This document shows, piece by piece, positions 39,001-48,000 of a stretch of 64,000 bases of DNA. Where the stretch lies: the NCBI GenBank assembly GCA_050012475.1, contig JBEKHC010000039.1, positions 1 through 64,000 on the forward strand, given 5' to 3'. Source of the stretch: Candidatus Velthaea sp. Its GTDB lineage: Bacteria > Vulcanimicrobiota > Vulcanimicrobiia > Vulcanimicrobiales > Vulcanimicrobiaceae. The position numbers were made by a program. The first letter of the stretch is position 1; each line of letters begins with the position of its first letter.

Positions 39001-42000
39001 CCGGCTCCGTCGACATCGGTCTGGGCATCGGCTCCGCACCCACGGCAGCCGGCATCAGTCAGGGCATTCCCTACCAGCTCGTCGGGATCATCGACAACAT
39101 CGGTCCGGCCGAAGAATTAACGGTGCGCAAGACGGCGAACATCAAGACACCGGCCGATCTCAAGGGGAAGAAAATCGGCGTCCCGTTCGGGTCGACCTCG
39201 CACTTTCGTTTGTTGGGTTTTCTCAAAGAGAACGGCTTGACGGAGAGCGACGTCACCGTCCTGGATTTGCGGCCGGACGCACTGGTCGCGGCCTGGCTTC
39301 GCGGCGACATCGACGGCGGATACGTCTGGAGCCCGGCAAAATCGAAGCTGCTGGCCAACGGCGGCGTGCCCTTCCGCACCTACGACAAGCTCGACGCTGC
39401 CGGATATGTCATCGCGGACCTCATCGTCGCGCGCACCGCCTACGTGCAGCAGTATCCCGAGGCGGTCAGCGGCGTCCTGCATGCGTACGGCCGCGCGCTT
39501 GCGTTGTGGAAAACCAAACCTTCGGACGCGGCCGAGATCGTCGGCAAACAGGCCGGTGTGAGCGCCGAGGTCGCGCGTCACGATCTCGACGAATACGATT
39601 TCGTGCCGCTTCGCGAGCAGCTGACGCCGACATGGTTGGGCGACCCTGGACACCCGGGTCAGTTCGCCGCGGTGCTCAAACGCACGGCAGATTTCCTGGT
39701 CGAACTCAAGAGCATCCGCTCCGCGCCCGACCTGACGGCGTTTCAGACCGCAGTCAACACCAGCCCGTTGGCGCAGGCCGCACGTGCTTGAGCGAACGTG
39801 ACGAGTTCGCCCTTCGTCGAATTCGACGATCTGTCGATCGAATTCGCATCGAGTGACGGACCCGTCTTAGCGCTCGACCACGCTTCGCTGCACTTCGAGG
39901 AAGGCGCGTTCGTCTGTATCGTCGGACCCTCGGGCTGCGGCAAGACGACCTTGCTCCAAACGCTCGCGGGATTTCTCAAGCCGACAAGCGGCACCGTTCG
40001 GCTCGACGGCCGGGTCATCGACGGACCCGGCGCCGACCGCGGCGTCGTCTTCCAGCAGCCGGCGCTTTTTCCGTGGATGACCGTGGCAAAAAACGCCGGT
40101 TTCGGTCTCATGGTGCGCGGCACCGCCGACAGCGAACAACAAGCCGCAGTCGAATCATACCTGCGGTTCGTGGGTTTATGGGATTTTCGCAACCGTTATC
40201 CGTACGAGCTCTCCGGCGGGATGCAGCAACGGCTGGCGATCGTGCGCGCACTGGTCAACGATCCCAAGGTCCTGCTCATGGACGAGCCATTCGGCGCTCT
40301 CGACGCCTTGACGCGCGAGAAAATGCAGGAAGAGCTGCACACGGTCTGGCGGCGCACGAAGAAAACGATCGTGTTCATCACGCACGGTGTCGAGGAGGCG
40401 GTCTACCTCGGCACCGAGGTCGTCGTGATGTCGCCGCGACCCGGCCGAATCCTCGAACGCCTGCCCCTGCCGTTCGCTCGCAACGGTGAAGACCGTGACA
40501 TTCGCGCCGTCAAGTCGAGTCCGGAGTTCGTCGCGCTGCGCGAACACGTGTTGTCGCTGATCTGGAAAACAGCCGACGCATTCTAAGCTACACCCCGATC
40601 GCCATGCTTTGCATCGACTGGGCCGGCGGAAATGCCATCGCAGCGACAAAGACCTTGGTAAACCCTGGATCGGTCGCGAGCTCGATCGACTCGACCGCAC
40701 GGGTTACGGCGAGCAGCGCGCCGCGGGCATCCGCGTTGACCAGCAGCGCTTCGGCGCCCGTGCGCGCGGTGTTGCCGACAAACGTGACTCTGCCTTCAAG
40801 TTGGGGCGGAAACAGACCAATGTCGATGAGGCTGCGCGTCGTGAGGTGGTAGCCGAACGAGCCCGCGACCAGCACCCGGTCCAGATCCGCAGGCACGAGT
40901 CCGTTATGTGCGAGCATCGTATCGATGCCGGCCCGGACGGCTGCTTTTGCCAGTTGCACTTGCCGGATATCGCCTTGGCTGAGATACACGTCGCCGGACA
41001 AATGAAAAACCGTTTTTCCGTCGCGCGGGCGCAAGCGATCGCGTAACGCCGGCGACAGCTGCGTCACCTTGCGCGTGAACCGCCCCGAGCTTTCGACGAC
41101 GCCGGTAACGACCATCGCGGCGAGCGCTTCGATCAAGCCGCTGCCGCAAATCCCGACGGCATCCGCACCGTCGATGGTCGCCACCCGGATGTCGTCGCCG
41201 TCGACTGCAACGCGTTCCACGGCGCCGCGCGCGGCACGCATACCGCAGGCGATGTTCATGCCCTCAAAGGCCGGCCCCGCAGCGGTCGATGTCGCTTGCA
41301 GCCGGCCGTCGCGCGCCAATACCATCTCGCCGTTGGTGCCGATGTCGACGAATAGCGTCACGCCGCCGGCGTTCGGCAGATCGGTCGAGAGCACGCCGGC
41401 GGCGATATCCGCGCCCACGAATCCCGAAATAAGGGGTGGAAAATAGATCTCGGCGCACGCGGCGACACGCAAACCCAGGGACCCGGCGGCGCGCGACTCA
41501 TCGCCCGCGAGCGCCGGCGTGTACGGAAAACGTCCGAGCGGTTCGGGGCTGACGTTGGCGGCAAGGTGCATCATGCACGTATTTCCGGCAACGACCACTT
41601 CGTAGATGCGCCGGCGCGGAATGCGGGCTTCCGCGGCGAGCAATCCGATCATGCGGTCGATCTCGGCCATCAGCTCGTCGTGCAACAGCGCCAAACCGTC
41701 CGCTTGCGATGCAATCTGCACGCGCGACAATACGTCCTGGGCGTGGGCGACCTGTGGATTGAGCGCGGCAACGGAACCGACGCGCGCTCCAGTCCCCAGA
41801 TCGAGTAAAGAGGCAACGAGCGTCGTCGTTCCGATGTCGACTGCGACCCCGTAGAGGCGGGTCGTCGTGTCGCCGTTTTCTTCGGCCAGCTGCCGTTCAC
41901 CCGAACTCACAATGGTGCACCGGCGCTCGTCATCGTAGCTTTTTCGAATGGCCGGGCGCACCGGCAGATCCAGCCGAAGACCGTCTTCGAGGATTCGCAG

Positions 42001-45000: not shown

Positions 45001-48000
45001 CAACGGGCCATACACGAAACCCATCACCGCGACGTCCTTGCCGCGCGCTTCAGCGAGACCGCGCACGATCTCGATGACGCCGCTGGTGCGGCGCGATTTG
45101 CGCGGATCGAAAGCGCGCACTTTCCCGTACTCCTGCGCCGTTGCAATAAACGGATTGTCGAAGTTCGGGAGCGCCGTGCTCCAATCGGGGAAGAGCACTT
45201 CTTGGCCGAAGTCTTCGGCTTCGACCGACAGGTCGACCAGGGTGAGCCAGCCGTCGAACCCGATCAGTTCTTGCGCCGCGAGCAGGCTGGCCGTCGCGGC
45301 CTTCGCATCCTGCGACCAGCGGCCGTACGAGATGCCCAAGACGCGGCCCGAGGCGCCGCAGACGAGCGGCGCCGCCGGTACCCGGTCGGGCTTTTTGTAT
45401 TGCAGCGCCAGTCCGACCCGTTCGAGCGACGTCAGTTGGTCGCGCTGGGCCGTGGCGGTTCCGTTGGTGCTCATGCCGCGTGCACGACTTCAGTCAGGCG
45501 TTTTGCCAGTTGCACGGCGAGCGTCGCCTTCGCCGCGTAGCCGTCGGCTCCGATGCGGTCGGCGAATTGCTGCGAGAGCGGAGCGCCGCCGACGATCACT
45601 TTGAAGCGCTCGCGGATGTCCTCGGCTCGGAGTATTCGGACGACTTGCGCCATCTGATCCATCGTCGTCGTCATGAGCGTCGAAAGTGCGATCACGTCGG
45701 CATTCACTTCCAACGCGCGATCGACGAACGTTCGGGCCGGCACGTCGCGGCCCAGATCGAAGACCTCGAAACCGGCAACTTCGAGCATGATCCGCACCAA
45801 ATTCTTGCCGATGTCGTGCGTGTCGCCGGCAACCACGCCGATGACGACCCGGCGACCGCGCACGGACGATTCCTGACGAATATGGGGCTGCAGGATCGCG
45901 AGGCCGGCATACATCGCATCGGCCGCAATCAAGAGTTCGGGAACGAAGTACTCCTCTTCGTCAAAGAGTTTTCCCGCCGCATTCATGCCGGCAATCAACC
46001 CATGTTCGACCGCCGCCCAAGCGTCGAGGCCCTGCGTGACTACCTCCTGCGACAGCTCGGCCGTCAACGGCTCGTCAAGCTCGAGAACCGCGTTGGCTAG
46101 AGCGGCATGCAGCTCATCAGGATCTTCGGACATAACATCTCCTTCTGTCGAAAGCGGCGCGTCCGGACGGCCGCGCAGAGTCAGTCATCATCGAGCTGCG
46201 CGACACCATTCACGAGCTCGATCCTTTCGTGGCTGCAGGCACCGGCGCACGCCCCGCATCCCGCACAGCGTCCGCTATCGATACTGATGCCTTCGTCGAC
46301 GCGCGTAACCGCGTCGTTGAAACACACTTCCGTGCAAGGCGCTTCACAAACGCGACAGACCCCGTCGGACGGTCCGCGATCCGAAGCTGGTTGACCCACA
46401 CCCGATGACGCCACGAAGATCGACATTCAACAAGCGGTCTTTCTGATCGAGAGAACCGGCGCTCAGATGGTCGAGCATCGCGTCGAGCGCTTTTAAGTCA
46501 GTACCGACATCGACGTTCAAGCCGGCGATTCGACCGCGTAGGCCGTGCCCGCTGGTCCGGTACCTTCGAGCCACACCGCAATGTCGCGTTTGGAAGAAAA
46601 ATGACGAAGCCCCTCACCGAACCGGCGAAGGGCTTCTTCGCAGAATAGCGCGGTGCGCTAACCCGCGGTGAAACTCACCGGCCCATTCGAAGGGGCCGGG
46701 TACACCACTGCGCTAACGCACGAGAGAGAAGCATTGCTTAATGATAGTAGCTGTTTGACGGTTCATGTGTCAAGCAGATGAATGCAGTTCTCAAACACAT
46801 GTGCTAAAGCAATTGCTATGCTTTATTGGAATTAAATCGTTTGCTCCGCATGTTGCCGGTTTGCTCGCTGCGCGCTTTCGACAGGGATGCCGCGCTGCAA
46901 CGAGCATTCGACGCTAACTTAGGGTCAACTATAATTTAACGTAGGGCCGACAAAATGCAAAATGCCGGCACCCATTATGCAATCGCTGCTTAACTACTTC
47001 ACGACGGAAGCGAACTTCCGGACGCGACGTACGAGCAGCTCCGCCTCTTCACTTCGCGCGATGATCGATTTGCTGCGTGACCCGATCGCCGCCGGCCTGA
47101 ACCGCGCACACGAACGCGATCAGCACCAGGACGACGGCGATCATCACGGTCGTCTCAAAGCGCTGATACCCGTAGCGGATCGCGAGGTCGCCCAAACCGC
47201 CCGCGCCCACCGCACCCGCAACGGCCGACTCGCCGATGAGCGAGATCAACGTCACCGTAAAGCCCGCCGACAGCCCGGGGAGCGCCTCGGGAACGAGCAC
47301 TTCCCAGACGATCGTGGCGCGGTTCGCTCCCATCGCGCGCGCCGCTTCGATCAGGCCTCCGTCGACTTCGCGCAGCGAGACTTCGGCGATGCGGGCAAAG
47401 TATGGGATCGCCGCGATCGACAGCGGGACGATCGCCGCCAACGTGCCGATCGACGTGCCCGCGATCAGCCGCGTAAACGGAATGAGCGCAACCATCAAGA
47501 TGATGAACGGGACCGAACGAAACGAATTGACGACCGCGCCAAGGATCCGGTTGACCGTCGGTTGTTCGACGATTCCGCCGCGATCGGTGCATACCAGAAC
47601 GAGGCCGATCGGCAACCCGATAAGGAGTGCGATAAGGCCCGAAGCGCCGACCATCAGCAGCGTTTCGAGCAGGGCCTCAACCGTGAGGTTAACGATCTGA
47701 GTTGAGATAGCCGAGCACCTCCACGGAAGAAACGCGGTCTTCGACGAACGCGCGGAAGCGCGAAGCCACGTCCGGCCCAGTATTTTTCACGCTCACGAAC
47801 AGGGTTCCGATCGGCTCGCCCTGCACGTGCTCGACTCCGCCCTCGAGCAGCGTCGCCGCGCCAAAGACTTGCGAAAGGTTGGCAAGGAGCGGCGAGCGCG
47901 CCTGATCCCCTTGCACGTCGAGGCGCACGACGAGAGCATCGCCCGTCACTTCGTGCAGCCGTGCAGCGATAAACTCCGGCAGCTCCGGCCGCAACGCGCC

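Follow-up and report, generated by a model that had tools for sequence, protein, structure and literature searches.

MtsA, a zinc enzyme of the URO-D family, itself moves methyl groups from DMS or methylmercaptopropionate to a corrinoid protein and has no MttB/MtaB-type partner; the methyl group then passes to coenzyme M and enters methanogenesis. The nitrogenase-like methylthio-alkane reductase MarBHDK, reportedly described by North et al. in 2020, recovers sulfur from volatile organosulfur compounds without O2 and yields methanethiol.

Kountz and Balskus (bioRxiv 2023, PMC10418091) described mlp gene clusters (MGC), whose type 1 has that of Clostridium ljungdahlii (ClMGC) as its prototype, and proposed for them a function in methyl-sulfur/selenium metabolism. 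The portions of that preprint drawn on here report MGCs from obligate anaerobes only (73% Firmicutes), propose that over 90% of type 1 mlp clusters salvage methyl-selenium, and give as the sole biochemical datum for the cluster family the preference of ClMlp2 for selenide, methylated 4.3-fold faster than sulfide (PMC10418091). The same portions treat a His-Cys-Cys triad as the mark of S/Se-methyltransferases, whereas O-demethylases replace the Cys ligands. They also present SdmABC of Methanococcus voltae, in which a corrinoid protein and MtaA-like enzymes, the methyltransferases being Mlp2-type, demethylate dimethylselenide and so scavenge scarce selenium from its methylated form (PMC10418091).

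Here we analyze a corrinoid methyltransferase module of Candidatus Velthaea sp., a peat-soil bacterium (Vulcanimicrobiota; genome 94% complete), in a window of 64,000 nucleotides, positions 1–64,000 of contig JBEKHC010000039.1. Compared by description, MtsA is its closest mechanistic model, although the module has three separate enzymes and the host no methanogenesis. SdmABC resembles it in the salvage of a chalcogen, but the present genome has neither Mlp2 nor a detectable SelD. MarBHDK shares the O2-independent salvage of sulfur; however, it belongs to an unrelated family, yields methanethiol rather than consuming it, and was not found in this genome.

Gene content and organization

Five co-directional genes, listed in the earlier note and recovered by ORF calling and domain searches, occupy positions 40588–46133 on the minus strand and are tightly packed, with junctions of −4, +5, −8 and +3 nt. 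They encode a corrinoid (cobamide-binding) methyl carrier protein (45471–46133; B12-binding_2 1e-17, B12-binding 2.8e-26, GDTHDIG His-on motif), a URO-D-fold zinc methyltransferase here called MT-C (44392–45474; URO-D 7.9e-48), two MtaA-like methyltransferases, MT-B (43322–44386; URO-D 7.8e-60) and MT-A (42295–43329; URO-D 1.2e-68), and an ATP-dependent reductive activator of the RACo/Ram type with an N-terminal [2Fe-2S] domain (40588–42291; Fer2 7.5e-9, Raco_middle 4.4e-51, RACo_C_ter 3.2e-72). The start of MT-B was set at ATG 44386, 5 nt past the MT-C stop, because this agrees with the Rhodopila orthologue; the ORF as listed extends to 44530.

A sixth ORF, absent from the earlier note, precedes the corrinoid protein gene by 47 nt (46181–46426, minus strand). 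It encodes a small Cys-rich ferredoxin-like protein of 81 aa (PF25160 LdpA_Fe-S-bd, 1.8e-7) with the motifs CxxCxxxCxxxC and CxxCxxCxxxC, and a homologue occupies the equivalent position in 12 of the 15 loci whose MT-C is at least 70% identical. We infer that it donates electrons to RACo. As part of the overall explanation favoured below, the six genes may form one operon for B12-dependent methyl transfer.

The genome holds one RACo and four URO-D genes, namely the three of the module and HemE. As the earlier note had stated, the module has no MttB- or MtaB-type substrate enzyme, and neither was found elsewhere in the 94%-complete genome. RACo scores 373 bits against the NCBIfam model AcsV (cut-off 800) and 114 bits against RamA (cut-off 500); it is 80% identical to its Rhodopila counterpart and 45% and 33% to the two C. 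ljungdahlii activators. The top NCBIfam model for the corrinoid protein is MtgC, which at 209 bits falls short of its cut-off (310), and the protein's identity is 77% to Rhodopila, 53% to the C. ljungdahlii MGC (ClMGC) and 60% to a second C. ljungdahlii cluster.

ClMGC, located by its described gene order and not by locus tags, likewise combines several MtaA-like URO-D methyltransferases carrying His-Cys-Cys, a monomeric corrinoid protein (the 53% match) and a bacterial-type Ram/RACE activator (the 33% match) in co-directional genes without a neighbouring folate methylase; MT-A and ClMlp3 share 41% identity. Our module shows the four defining features of an mlp gene cluster and is a variant of that kind, in a cluster family that is still uncharacterised. 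The cluster type, which the earlier note implied to be new, was described in 2023, with the same methyl-sulfur/selenium proposal (PMC10418091, in the portions cited). Since Mlp2 is not present, the module falls outside type 1. It differs further from ClMGC in having MT-C, a duplicated Mlp3 and the extra ferredoxin gene, and in a host with aerobic oxidases, in contrast to the obligate anaerobes of those portions of the preprint. The picture of an aerobic host holds in part: the genome encodes three or four haem-copper oxidases but also a nitrogenase, which means that O2-sensitive chemistry already has a place in the organism.

Methyltransferases and their zinc site

MT-A and MT-B exceed the PRK06252 cut-off of 244 bits (355 and 298 bits, respectively) and fall inside the Mlp3 clade in trees, MT-B in a paralogous sub-clade. 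MT-A aligns with MtaA (4ay7, E 4.7e-43) including the HxC...C motif and is 53–58% identical to Firmicute Mlp3-like proteins; MT-B is 34% identical to ClMlp3, 39% to MT-A and 74% to its Rhodopila counterpart. MT-C groups outside Mlp1, Mlp2 and Mlp3, in a highly conserved clade of its own (SH-aLRT support 100); it is 19%, 22% and 24% identical to ClMlp1, ClMlp2 and ClMlp3, whereas its orthologues are 58–86% identical across phyla, and throughout the clade its gene adjoins that of the corrinoid protein. Identity comparison, trees and a genome search revealed no Mlp2-clade enzyme in the genome.

The His-Cys-Cys zinc triad, aligned to MtaA, is kept in MT-A, MT-B and MT-C, while HemE has F-L-H at these positions. 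Among relatives it is found in 72/76 MT-C, 37/37 Mlp3(A) and 16/17 Mlp3(B) rows. All NCBIfam matches of MT-C are below cut-off and its best match in the PDB sequence search is MtaA with only 35 bits, but its AF2 model (pLDDT 90.7) has MtaA 4ay7 as the top structural match (TM 0.81–0.86). The PDB sequence search at E ≤ 1e-5 returned only MtaA and one UroD, and the fold-search chains listed (ranks 1–50, with gaps) include no dehalogenase or O-demethylase.

The triad in all three proteins and the sulfur context make it most likely, as proposed earlier, that the MtaA-like enzymes themselves act on methyl-sulfur compounds. MT-C in particular is a putative methyl-sulfur substrate:Co(I) methyltransferase. 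By sequence all three look thiol-type, and donor and acceptor roles are indistinguishable among them.

Upstream region

A promoter-like site (TTGACA-18-TACTAT; 46744–46773, minus strand) matches the consensus at 10 of 12 positions; two such sites were found against 1.2 expected, which is weak as sole support. It is followed by a structured leader (46590–46745, minus strand) that ends in a 14-bp hairpin with a T-run (46606–46636). The leader folds at −73 kcal/mol (z −5.87), which none of 200 shuffled sequences equalled, is single-copy in the genome, has no Rfam match at E ≤ 0.1 and shows no conservation with Rhodopila upstream regions. It could act as an attenuator or in the manner of a riboswitch, or else terminate the metQNI unit.

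Among 21 related loci scanned, two, in C. ljungdahlii and C. frigoriphilum, have a T-box directly upstream of the corrinoid protein gene. Their specifier loops invariantly contain UGC, and the base that pairs with the discriminator is A or G, where tRNA-Met or tRNA-Val would call for a U. The specifier can alternatively be read as AUG or GUG, but UGC together with A/G instead of U points to T-boxes that are probably Cys-specific.

A sulfur gene island

The module lies between two importers, in agreement with the earlier note. A taurine/sulfonate-type ABC system (36890–40586, plus strand), grouped with an operon of Xsc-like and Fe-ADH genes, is convergent to it, and MetQNI (47049–49745) shares the module's strand and lies 620 bp upstream of it. 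Two SfnG, SfnB, CBS and the cysteine synthase CysK in the window each score above curated NCBIfam cut-offs, and sulfonate ABC systems and two MetNIQ systems accompany them. The window is an organosulfur/sulfur-scavenging gene island.

Related loci and origin

A search for the gene order in other genomes found it identical in Rhodopila (74–86% identity), Rhodoblastus and Thiodictyon. Within the phylum, an MT-C orthologue occurs in 1 of 401 sampled genomes, with none in 3 same-genus and 296 same-family genomes. The rarity of RACo reported earlier was reproduced (0/3 genus, 2/296 family and 21/401 phylum genomes, the present one counted). In tetranucleotide composition the module correlates with the genome at 0.981; 5.8-kb pieces drawn at random give 0.978 ± 0.011. 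The gene order shared with these other bacteria and the single MT-C among 401 phylum genomes, on a contig of native composition, indicate that the module was likely acquired by horizontal transfer; the transfer was old rather than recent, because composition is fully ameliorated.

Within 10 kb of 45 loci with MT-C at least 55% identical (neighbour families checked by Pfam on 8 loci), we found a PALP enzyme of the CysK/CBS type at 22, a Cys_Met_Meta_PP enzyme at 27, an NMT1-type binding protein at 13, nitrogenase-D/K-like (Mar-like) genes at 10 and an Rrf2 regulator at 9. The MarBHDK homologues are linked to 10 of the 30 loci in the 55–69% identity group. More distant relatives of MT-C (≤54% identity) adjoin MtrH-type or GcvT-SHMT genes, indicating that the clade serves catabolic folate-linked routes too.

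The second C. ljungdahlii cluster (L067) and those of Acetobacterium, Sporomusa and heliobacteria contain orthologues of MT-C (58–63%), the corrinoid protein (56–60%), MT-A (53–58%) and RACo (44–48%) and share the sulfur amino-acid context. However, these Firmicute versions also carry DUF1638, CobW and an enzyme of the Mlp2 kind, are without MT-B and the ferredoxin, and often lie by nitrogenase-like genes that the present genome lacks. They are probably the 'non-selenium' MGCs that the preprint links to Mar-like genes.

Proposed function and alternative readings

We propose, with a probability of roughly 45%, that the operon carries out corrinoid-dependent methyl transfer between sulfur atoms and supplies sulfur amino acids under sulfate scarcity. 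In this scheme RACo, which probably receives its electrons from the ferredoxin, would spend ATP to reduce inactive Co(II) of the corrinoid protein to Co(I). The His-Cys-Cys zinc site of MT-C would bind a methyl-thioether or methanethiol, with a preference for methanethiol/DMS-type compounds, and pass the methyl group to Co(I), freeing sulfide or a thiol for cysteine synthase. MT-A and MT-B, which are MtaA/Mlp3-type, could move the methyl group from methyl-Co(III) to an accepting thiol, or alternatively take further methyl-sulfur donors. A thiol sink would be wasteful under sulfur limitation except with homocysteine, which would give methionine and is the most economical candidate acceptor. The earlier suggestion that the module feeds C1 metabolism found no support: no MtrH-type protein was found in the genome, and Pterin_bind matches (two taken as FolP and one long MetH-like frame) lie on other contigs only, so the module appears to have no folate route. 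Against our proposal count the missing Mar-like genes (best matches 21–28% identical, to the genome's nitrogenase-type genes), CobW, DUF1638 and Mlp2, all of them frequent partners in relatives, and the distance of MT-C from any characterised enzyme. So do the selenide preference of ClMlp2, although its clade is absent here, the folate-linked neighbours of distant MT-C relatives and the alternative readings of the T-box specifier.

MetQNI, directly upstream on the same strand, raises a different route, in which imported methionine loses its methyl group to the corrinoid protein, the resulting homocysteine is turned into cysteine by CBS and cystathionine gamma-lyase, and the methyl group is handed to another acceptor. 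The window CBS is above the equivalog cut-off, MetI/MetN homologues also adjoin the operon in L051 and L054, loci of Rhodoblastus, Chthoniobacteraceae and Geobacter have the operon bordered by CBS (PALP + CBS domains) and a Cys_Met_Meta_PP enzyme, which make up a reverse-transsulfuration pair, and the Cys-type T-box would fit a cysteine-producing role. If true, this would mean O2- and SAM-independent life on methionine as sulfur source. Yet between metI and the operon there is a 620-bp gap that contains the terminator-like hairpin, MetI adjoins the operon in only 2 of 15 close loci, methionine, a thioether, donates its methyl group poorly to Co(I), and where that group would go is harder to say than under transfer between sulfur atoms; we regard this route as rather unlikely. 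Peat is rich in methoxylated aromatics, and a gene 4 kb distant encodes an outer-membrane channel of the FadL/TodX type for hydrophobic compounds, as would suit a demethylase of methoxy-aromatics (Odm/Vdm/Mtv/Mto) or chloromethane (CmuA/CdmB) feeding one-carbon metabolism; URO-D-family enzymes catalyse such reactions elsewhere. The zinc triad in all three proteins speaks against methoxy-aromatics, a substrate also named in the earlier note, given the Cys replacement rule (PMC10418091, in the portions cited); in the tree of that preprint the Mlp/SCMT branch likewise excludes O-demethylases. With the sequence and structural matches described above, the missing folate/pterin methyltransferase and the Cys/Met-linked neighbours and regulation of relatives, we find this reading quite improbable.

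Highly improbable, too, is salvage of methyl-selenium, with dimethylselenide or methylselenol demethylated to selenide. The zinc site is suited to both Se and S, and the preprint ties the cluster family to selenium, with ClMlp2 as its example; but its cited portions set aside a non-selenium clade whose links are to Mar-like and Met/Cys genes (PMC10418091), the neighbouring genes here concern sulfur, an Mlp2-clade enzyme is lacking, and SelD was not found in the 94%-complete genome (best match ThiL, 256 bits). Preferring methyl transfer between sulfur atoms, we also give very little credence to a horizontally acquired passenger currently without a role. The scarcity of MT-C orthologues in the genus, family and phylum and the missing accessory genes would agree with one, but the six frames are intact with coupled junctions, the placement inside the sulfur island is coherent, and a composition indistinguishable from that of the genome implies long residence under selection. 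Module DNA also recurs in peat and soil metagenomes, where 8 runs contain at least half of the sampled words and several carry the sequence at 95–100% identity.

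Architecture of the Operon

The five genes listed in an earlier note on this DNA, encoding a reductive activator, three URO-D-family methyltransferases and a corrinoid protein, form a genuine and coherent operon on the minus strand. They encode the corrinoid protein CP (46133-45471; 220 aa; Pfam B12-binding_2 and B12-binding), the methyltransferases MT-C (45474-44392; 360 aa), MT-B (44386-43322; 354 aa) and MT-A (43329-42295; 344 aa), each with a Pfam URO-D domain, and a RACo-type activator (42291-40588; 567 aa; Pfam Fer2, Raco_middle and RACo_C_ter). Pfam E-values across the five genes range from 7.5e-9 (Fer2) to 3.2e-72. 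Because successive junctions measure -4, +5, -8 and +3 nt, we read the genes as one operon. The ORF listed for MT-B reaches 44530; the ATG at 44386, 5 bases past the MT-C stop, fits the length of the Rhodopila orthologue. A Cys-rich ferredoxin-like ORF (46426-46181; minus strand; 81 codons; Fe-S binding family match, 1.8e-7), overlooked earlier, lies 47 nt upstream of CP.

CP carries the GDTHDIG His-on motif. The NCBIfam model PRK06252 ('methylcobalamin:coenzyme M methyltransferase', cut-off 244 bits) scores MT-A at 355, MT-B at 298 and MT-C at 105 bits. All three Pfam domains of the activator exceed their cut-offs and compose the RACo/Ram architecture ([2Fe-2S] ferredoxin, middle domain, ASKHA ATPase), while neither the AcsV (373 of 800) nor the RamA (114 of 500) equivalog cut-off is reached.

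Zinc Site and Phylogeny of the Methyltransferases

The zinc ligands H244, C246 and C320 (MT-A numbering) are identical in all three paralogues and align with the HxC...C motif of MtaA (4ay7). MT-A, MT-B and MT-C thus share the His-Cys-Cys site of S/Se-type (SCMT-like) enzymes. This site is kept in 72/76 aligned MT-C rows, 37/37 of Mlp3(A), 16/17 of Mlp3(B) and 16/16 of Mlp2, HemE having F-L-H instead. The AlphaFold model of MT-C (pLDDT 90.7) finds its best structural match in MtaA (TM 0.81-0.86), followed by true UroDs; the ESM Atlas returned only generic 'uroporphyrinogen decarboxylase family' clusters.

Mlp1-3 are the MtaA-like proteins of the described mlp gene clusters (MGCs). MT-A and MT-B are 41% and 34% identical to ClMlp3, and MT-C is 22% identical to ClMlp2, 19% to ClMlp1 and 24% to ClMlp3. 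Two HemE-rooted trees, a FastTree of 93 rows (rows >85% identical removed) and an IQ-TREE quick search of 53 chosen rows, recover the same three clades: an Mlp3 group including MT-A and MT-B (supports 95 and 95, respectively), Mlp2 (99 and 98) and MT-C (99 and 100). In the IQ-TREE search each of them is one side of a branch. Judged by these sequence comparisons, MT-C is a fourth lineage, a clade of its own apart from Mlp1-3.

Relatives and Gene Order

Orthologues of MT-C are 86% identical in Rhodopila, 78-80% in Rhodoblastus, 71% in Chthoniobacteraceae and 58-64% in Geobacter, Sporomusa, Clostridium, Acetobacterium and heliobacteria. The window proteins were compared with 76 loci holding MT-C relatives (numbered L below), one genome per species. 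The MT-C anchor was found at 50% coverage in 75 of the 76; L091, cut by a contig end, was left out. Neighbours were counted within 10 kb of the anchor and labelled by tblastn, and the Pfam identity of representatives was checked on 8 loci.

CP is found in 15/15 loci with at least 70% MT-C identity and 29/30 loci with 55-69%. The corresponding counts are 15/15 and 22/30 for Mlp3-like proteins and 14/15 and 21/30 for RACo. Mlp2-like proteins are counted in 2/15 and 18/30 loci, DUF1638 in 0/15 and 20/30, and the ferredoxin, in the same place as in the window, in 12/15 and 0/30. CobW accompanies 10/15 and 18/30 loci. Further neighbours are PALP enzymes (7/15 and 15/30), Cys_Met_Meta_PP enzymes (8/15 and 19/30), NMT1-type binding proteins (8/15 and 5/30), Rrf2 (2/15 and 7/30), nitrogenase D/K-like proteins (0/15 and 10/30) and NifH-like proteins (0/15 and 4/30). 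Of the 30 loci with lower identity (<=54%), most hold MT-C and CP only.

The order ferredoxin-CP-MT-C-MT-B-MT-A-RACo is shared by Rhodopila (74-86% identity), Rhodoblastus, alphaproteobacterial MAGs and Thiodictyon. The Firmicute order is CP-MT-C-(CobW)-DUF1638-Mlp3-like-RACo-Mlp2-like. CP-MT-C is the constant core of the loci, in which MT-C represents a separate, very conserved methyltransferase clade. Proteobacterial operons have a CobW/COG0523 GTPase gene directly after RACo (L017 14833-15786, L018 14855-15862, L021 14820-15785); the operon of the window, unlike these, stops at RACo.

Comparison with Described mlp Gene Clusters

As defined in the main text of Kountz and Balskus (bioRxiv 2023; PMC10418091), an MGC combines at least two MtaA-like proteins with a corrinoid protein as well as a Ram/RACE protein, has one transcription direction and gaps of <=2 kb, and within 20 kb lacks a folate methylase; clusters that possess both Mlp2 and Mlp3 are of type 1. 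The preprint lists 367 clusters, and 19% of its Mlps lie outside Mlp1-3. The operon encodes three URO-D/MtaA-like proteins, one B12-binding_2+B12-binding protein and one Fer2+Raco_middle+RACo_C_ter protein. All lie on the minus strand from 46426 to 40588 without an intervening divergent gene, and no junction exceeds 2 kb. Pterin_bind domains occur on the host contigs C31, C100 and C20, with none on C39, the contig of the window. MT-A and MT-B group with ClMlp3, and no member of the ClMlp2 clade is found in the window or genome, where clades are taken from trees and those of the preprint from an SSN. The operon is thus an MGC; with Mlp3 twice, a fourth lineage and no Mlp2, it is not of type 1 as defined.

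The kind of operon is thus already described, at preprint level. New with respect to it are the MT-C lineage as core, the duplicated Mlp3, the absence of Mlp2, the extra ferredoxin and the host, an oxygen-respiring lineage reached by old gene transfer. The main text of the preprint states mlp clusters only for obligate anaerobes and does not mention Proteobacteria (PMC10418091); our loci indicate that the mlp-type system is not confined to obligate anaerobes.

We located the prototype ClMGC in the genome that also holds L067 by its described order Mlp-Mlp-CP-Mlp-RACE. In C. ljungdahlii, two different clusters of the mlp type are separated by about 65 kb (L113, G001:C1:394000-405500, and L067). 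The published prototype has the order Mlp1-Mlp2-CP-Mlp3-RACE. The second cluster, CP-MT-C-DUF1638-Mlp3-like-RACo-Mlp2-like, lies downstream of a T-box and is the sole one orthologous to the operon of the window.

Surroundings of the Operon

Besides the operon, the 64-kb window is an organosulfur-scavenging or sulfur-starvation island (12778-26622 and 52203-58106). It contains an SsuA-like ABC system (12778-15169), a cystathionine beta-synthase (CBS; 19832-21445; 543 bits, cut-off 510), two SfnG dimethylsulfone monooxygenases and SfnB (above equivalog cut-offs), CysK (451 bits, cut-off 387), an Fe-alcohol dehydrogenase best matched by the sulfoacetaldehyde reductase model, and two MetNIQ sets. 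One of the latter, MetQ-MetN-MetI (49745-47049), lies on the minus strand, as the operon does, and 620 bp upstream of it. Since SfnG/SfnB, CBS, CysK and the ABC/MetNIQ sets share the window, O2-dependent and putative O2-independent routes to DMS-derived sulfur stand side by side.

A sulfoacetaldehyde acetyltransferase (Xsc-like; 33580-35351; plus strand) is split over two frames, with TPP_enzyme_N in the ORF 33580-34137 and the middle and C-terminal domains in the ORF 34245-35351 of another frame (Xsc model 201-579); the split reflects a frameshift, a pseudogene or else an error of assembly. The taurine/sulfonate-type ABC system (36890-40586) lies on the plus strand and converges on RACo, and therefore belongs with the Xsc operon and not with the module. 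A FadL/TodX-type outer-membrane channel and a DUF4395 membrane protein (50313-52074) are encoded 4 kb from the operon; the channel may let hydrophobic volatile sulfur compounds into the cell. A FadL homologue, 41% identical, is found near the Rhodopila operon (L062 4579-5712).

The 620-bp gap to the metI operon contains a promoter-like site (46773-46744; minus strand) followed by a strongly folded stretch of 156 nt (z -5.87), the two together covering 46590-46773. The folded stretch ends in a 14-bp hairpin and T-run, the hairpin lying at 46606-46636, about 180 nt ahead of the ferredoxin ORF. This leader has no Rfam match at E<=0.1 (30000-56000 scanned), is not conserved in Rhodopila and occurs once in the genome. 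Possible identities are a new attenuator or riboswitch, a small RNA or simply the metQNI terminator. A known riboswitch ahead of the operon was considered and dropped, Rfam giving no match here or upstream of the proteobacterial operons.

Regulation in Related Loci

An Rfam scan of 21 related loci found a T-box directly upstream of the CP gene in two, C. ljungdahlii (L067, 8766-9020) and C. frigoriphilum (L041, 8983-9214). C. algoriphilum carries a third similar T-box ahead of an operon with Cys_Met_Meta_PP and PALP genes. The specifier loop has an invariant UGC preceded by a variable base. The tRNA discriminator would pair with A (L067) or G; for tRNA-Met or tRNA-Val, U is expected. By the usual reading rules we take the T-boxes ahead of CP to be probable cysteine T-boxes, and AUG/GUG may be an alternative reading of the specifier.

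SAM riboswitches are present on neighbouring Cys_Met_Meta_PP genes. Such control was also considered for the C. algoriphilum cluster (L035) and rejected because its S-box (8335-8443) stands ahead of a 56-codon remnant ORF and comes with a terminator, and the CP gene has a promoter-like site of its own.

Host Genome and Origin

The host assembly (5.36 Mb, 94% complete, 5.3% contaminated) encodes one RACo and four URO-D proteins, the three of the module and HemE, and no MttB or MtaB was found in it. One of its three Pterin_bind matches lies inside a 1327-aa MetH-like frame, and the other two are taken to be FolP. The genome yielded no MtrH-type methyltransferase, CobW or DUF1638 by tblastn. Eight matches to nitrogenase component 1 comprise four together on contig C43, as expected for NifDKEN, and two further pairs; Mar-like queries (homologues of the nitrogenase-like methylthio-alkane reductase) are only 21-28% identical to them. 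Together with four COX1 matches, three of full length, these nitrogenase genes indicate a host that can respire oxygen yet also runs O2-sensitive enzymes.

Of the 401 host-phylum genomes sampled, this is the only one with an MT-C orthologue; none was found in 3 same-genus or 296 same-family genomes, and two other genomes of the phylum encode URO-D proteins 24-27% identical to MT-C. The distribution of RACo claimed previously was reproduced, with RACo in 21 of the 401. A mis-binned contig is ruled out by the composition of C39 (tetranucleotide correlation with the rest of the genome 0.996, rank 10 of 45 large contigs) and by the adjacent TauCAB, 76-77% identical in DNA to a same-genus genome. 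The named relatives of TauA are Acetobacteraceae (64-73% identity), other hits reaching 79-92%.

DNA similarity to Rhodopila (75%) spans 40624-46121, from about 10 nt inside CP to about 35 nt inside RACo, and excludes the flanks. The module has a tetranucleotide correlation of 0.981; equally large random pieces give 0.978 +/- 0.011. The earlier note's worry that the module might be a recent transfer is dispelled by this level of identity and the ameliorated composition. We read the operon as an old horizontal acquisition from, or one shared with, acidophilic alphaproteobacterial phototrophs. Module DNA was found in peat and soil metagenomes of several studies, and one contig from an independent peat run covers 46635-47225, from the hairpin into metI. 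No RNA run is among those listed with module DNA, and the four runs compared in detail consist of DNA contigs.

Proposed Function and Alternatives

To our knowledge, most bacterial routes to organosulfur sulfur need oxygen, and the nitrogenase-like Mar enzymes are the exception known to us for O2-free recovery of methanethiol, DMS or methionine sulfur. A second, B12-dependent O2-free route has its main candidate in the mlp clusters. Our literature search found no paper characterising a cobalamin-dependent demethylation of methanethiol or methionine for sulfur assimilation, and a 2026 preprint on Mar-like enzymes names corrinoid in its reference list alone.

It is firm that in this operon three thiol-type zinc methyltransferases and an ATP-dependent reductive activator serve a corrinoid protein, without a folate outlet and in a sulfur-scavenging context. 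It is equally firm that close members of its family are wired to cysteine and methionine metabolism. The probable cysteine T-box, Rrf2/CysK, CBS with cystathionine-type enzymes and Mar-like genes are independent regulatory and neighbourhood evidence, pointing the sub-family to cysteine/methionine supply and not to selenium or C1 catabolism. We hypothesize, with a probability of about 0.45, that MT-C takes methyl groups from putative methanethiol/DMS-type donors and that MT-A and MT-B methylate homocysteine. MT-C would load Co(I) and free sulfide or thiol, and MT-A and MT-B would unload the methyl group to give methionine.

The main rival, somewhat unlikely in our view, takes imported methionine as the putative donor, its homocysteine passing through CBS and cystathionine gamma-lyase to cysteine. 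Selenium salvage draws on the described clusters: methyl-sulfur or methyl-selenium metabolism was argued from the His-Cys-Cys zinc site and gene context, and ClMlp2 was shown to methylate selenide, with sulfide 4.3-fold slower (main text of PMC10418091). The same text sets apart a 'non-selenium' group of about 10%, tied to Mar-like and Met/Cys genes. For a selenium-linked MGC/Sdm system, a host with SelD (selenophosphate) or selenoproteins would be expected; no SelD above the cut-off was found in this 94% complete genome, its best hit being ThiL (256 bits for thiL vs 94 bits for selD). The context of the operon strengthens the sulfur reading over the selenium one, which we consider very improbable.

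Catabolism of O-methyl or halomethyl compounds is improbable as well. Phenyl methyl ether O-demethylases (Odm/Vdm/Mtv/Mto) pair an MT I, in which carboxylate or non-coordinating residues replace Cys, with a pterin/folate MT II; the operon is set apart from them by His-Cys-Cys in all three methyltransferases and no folate methyltransferase nearby. The chloromethane system CdmBCA was also considered as a relative and rejected, being O-demethylase-like in its authors' tree and absent from PDB searches. That the operon is a silent passenger seems hardly credible.

Returning to methanethiol and DMS as donors, we tentatively speculate, and with considerable doubt, that MT-C and CP are a putative, previously unrecognised methanethiol/dimethylsulfide:cob(I)amide pair. 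With the Mlp3-type homocysteine methylases they would form an O2- and folate-independent route from volatile methyl-sulfur compounds to sulfide (for cysteine) and methyl groups (for methionine). Such a route would have spread by transfer among O2-respiring peat phototrophs (Rhodopila, Rhodoblastus, Thiodictyon and this lineage) and would be an anoxic counterpart of the SfnG/SfnB dimethylsulfone route 20 kb away. The function is directly testable in Rhodoblastus acidophilus, since this species is cultured and carries an identical operon, the gene order agreeing in L021, L024 and L025.

Distant MT-C Relatives

Two distant relatives of MT-C (36-47% identity) have folate-linked neighbours: an MtrH-type methyltransferase in Desulfotruncus (L061 11954-14863) and a GcvT-SHMT fusion in Desulfobacterales (L075 7010-9670). 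This catabolic look suggests that in sulfate reducers the MT-C clade passes methyl groups on to folate, and the distant loci are a candidate for the DMS/methanethiol catabolism of such bacteria. Thermincola (L059 900-12730) has three MT-C copies with CobW GTPases, a CbbQ/NorQ-type AAA protein and DUF2284; a large protein without a Pfam match occupies the position of the VWA-domain protein of L061 (4485-9890). The accessory set looks like cofactor insertion or chaperones for corrinoid or zinc enzymes.
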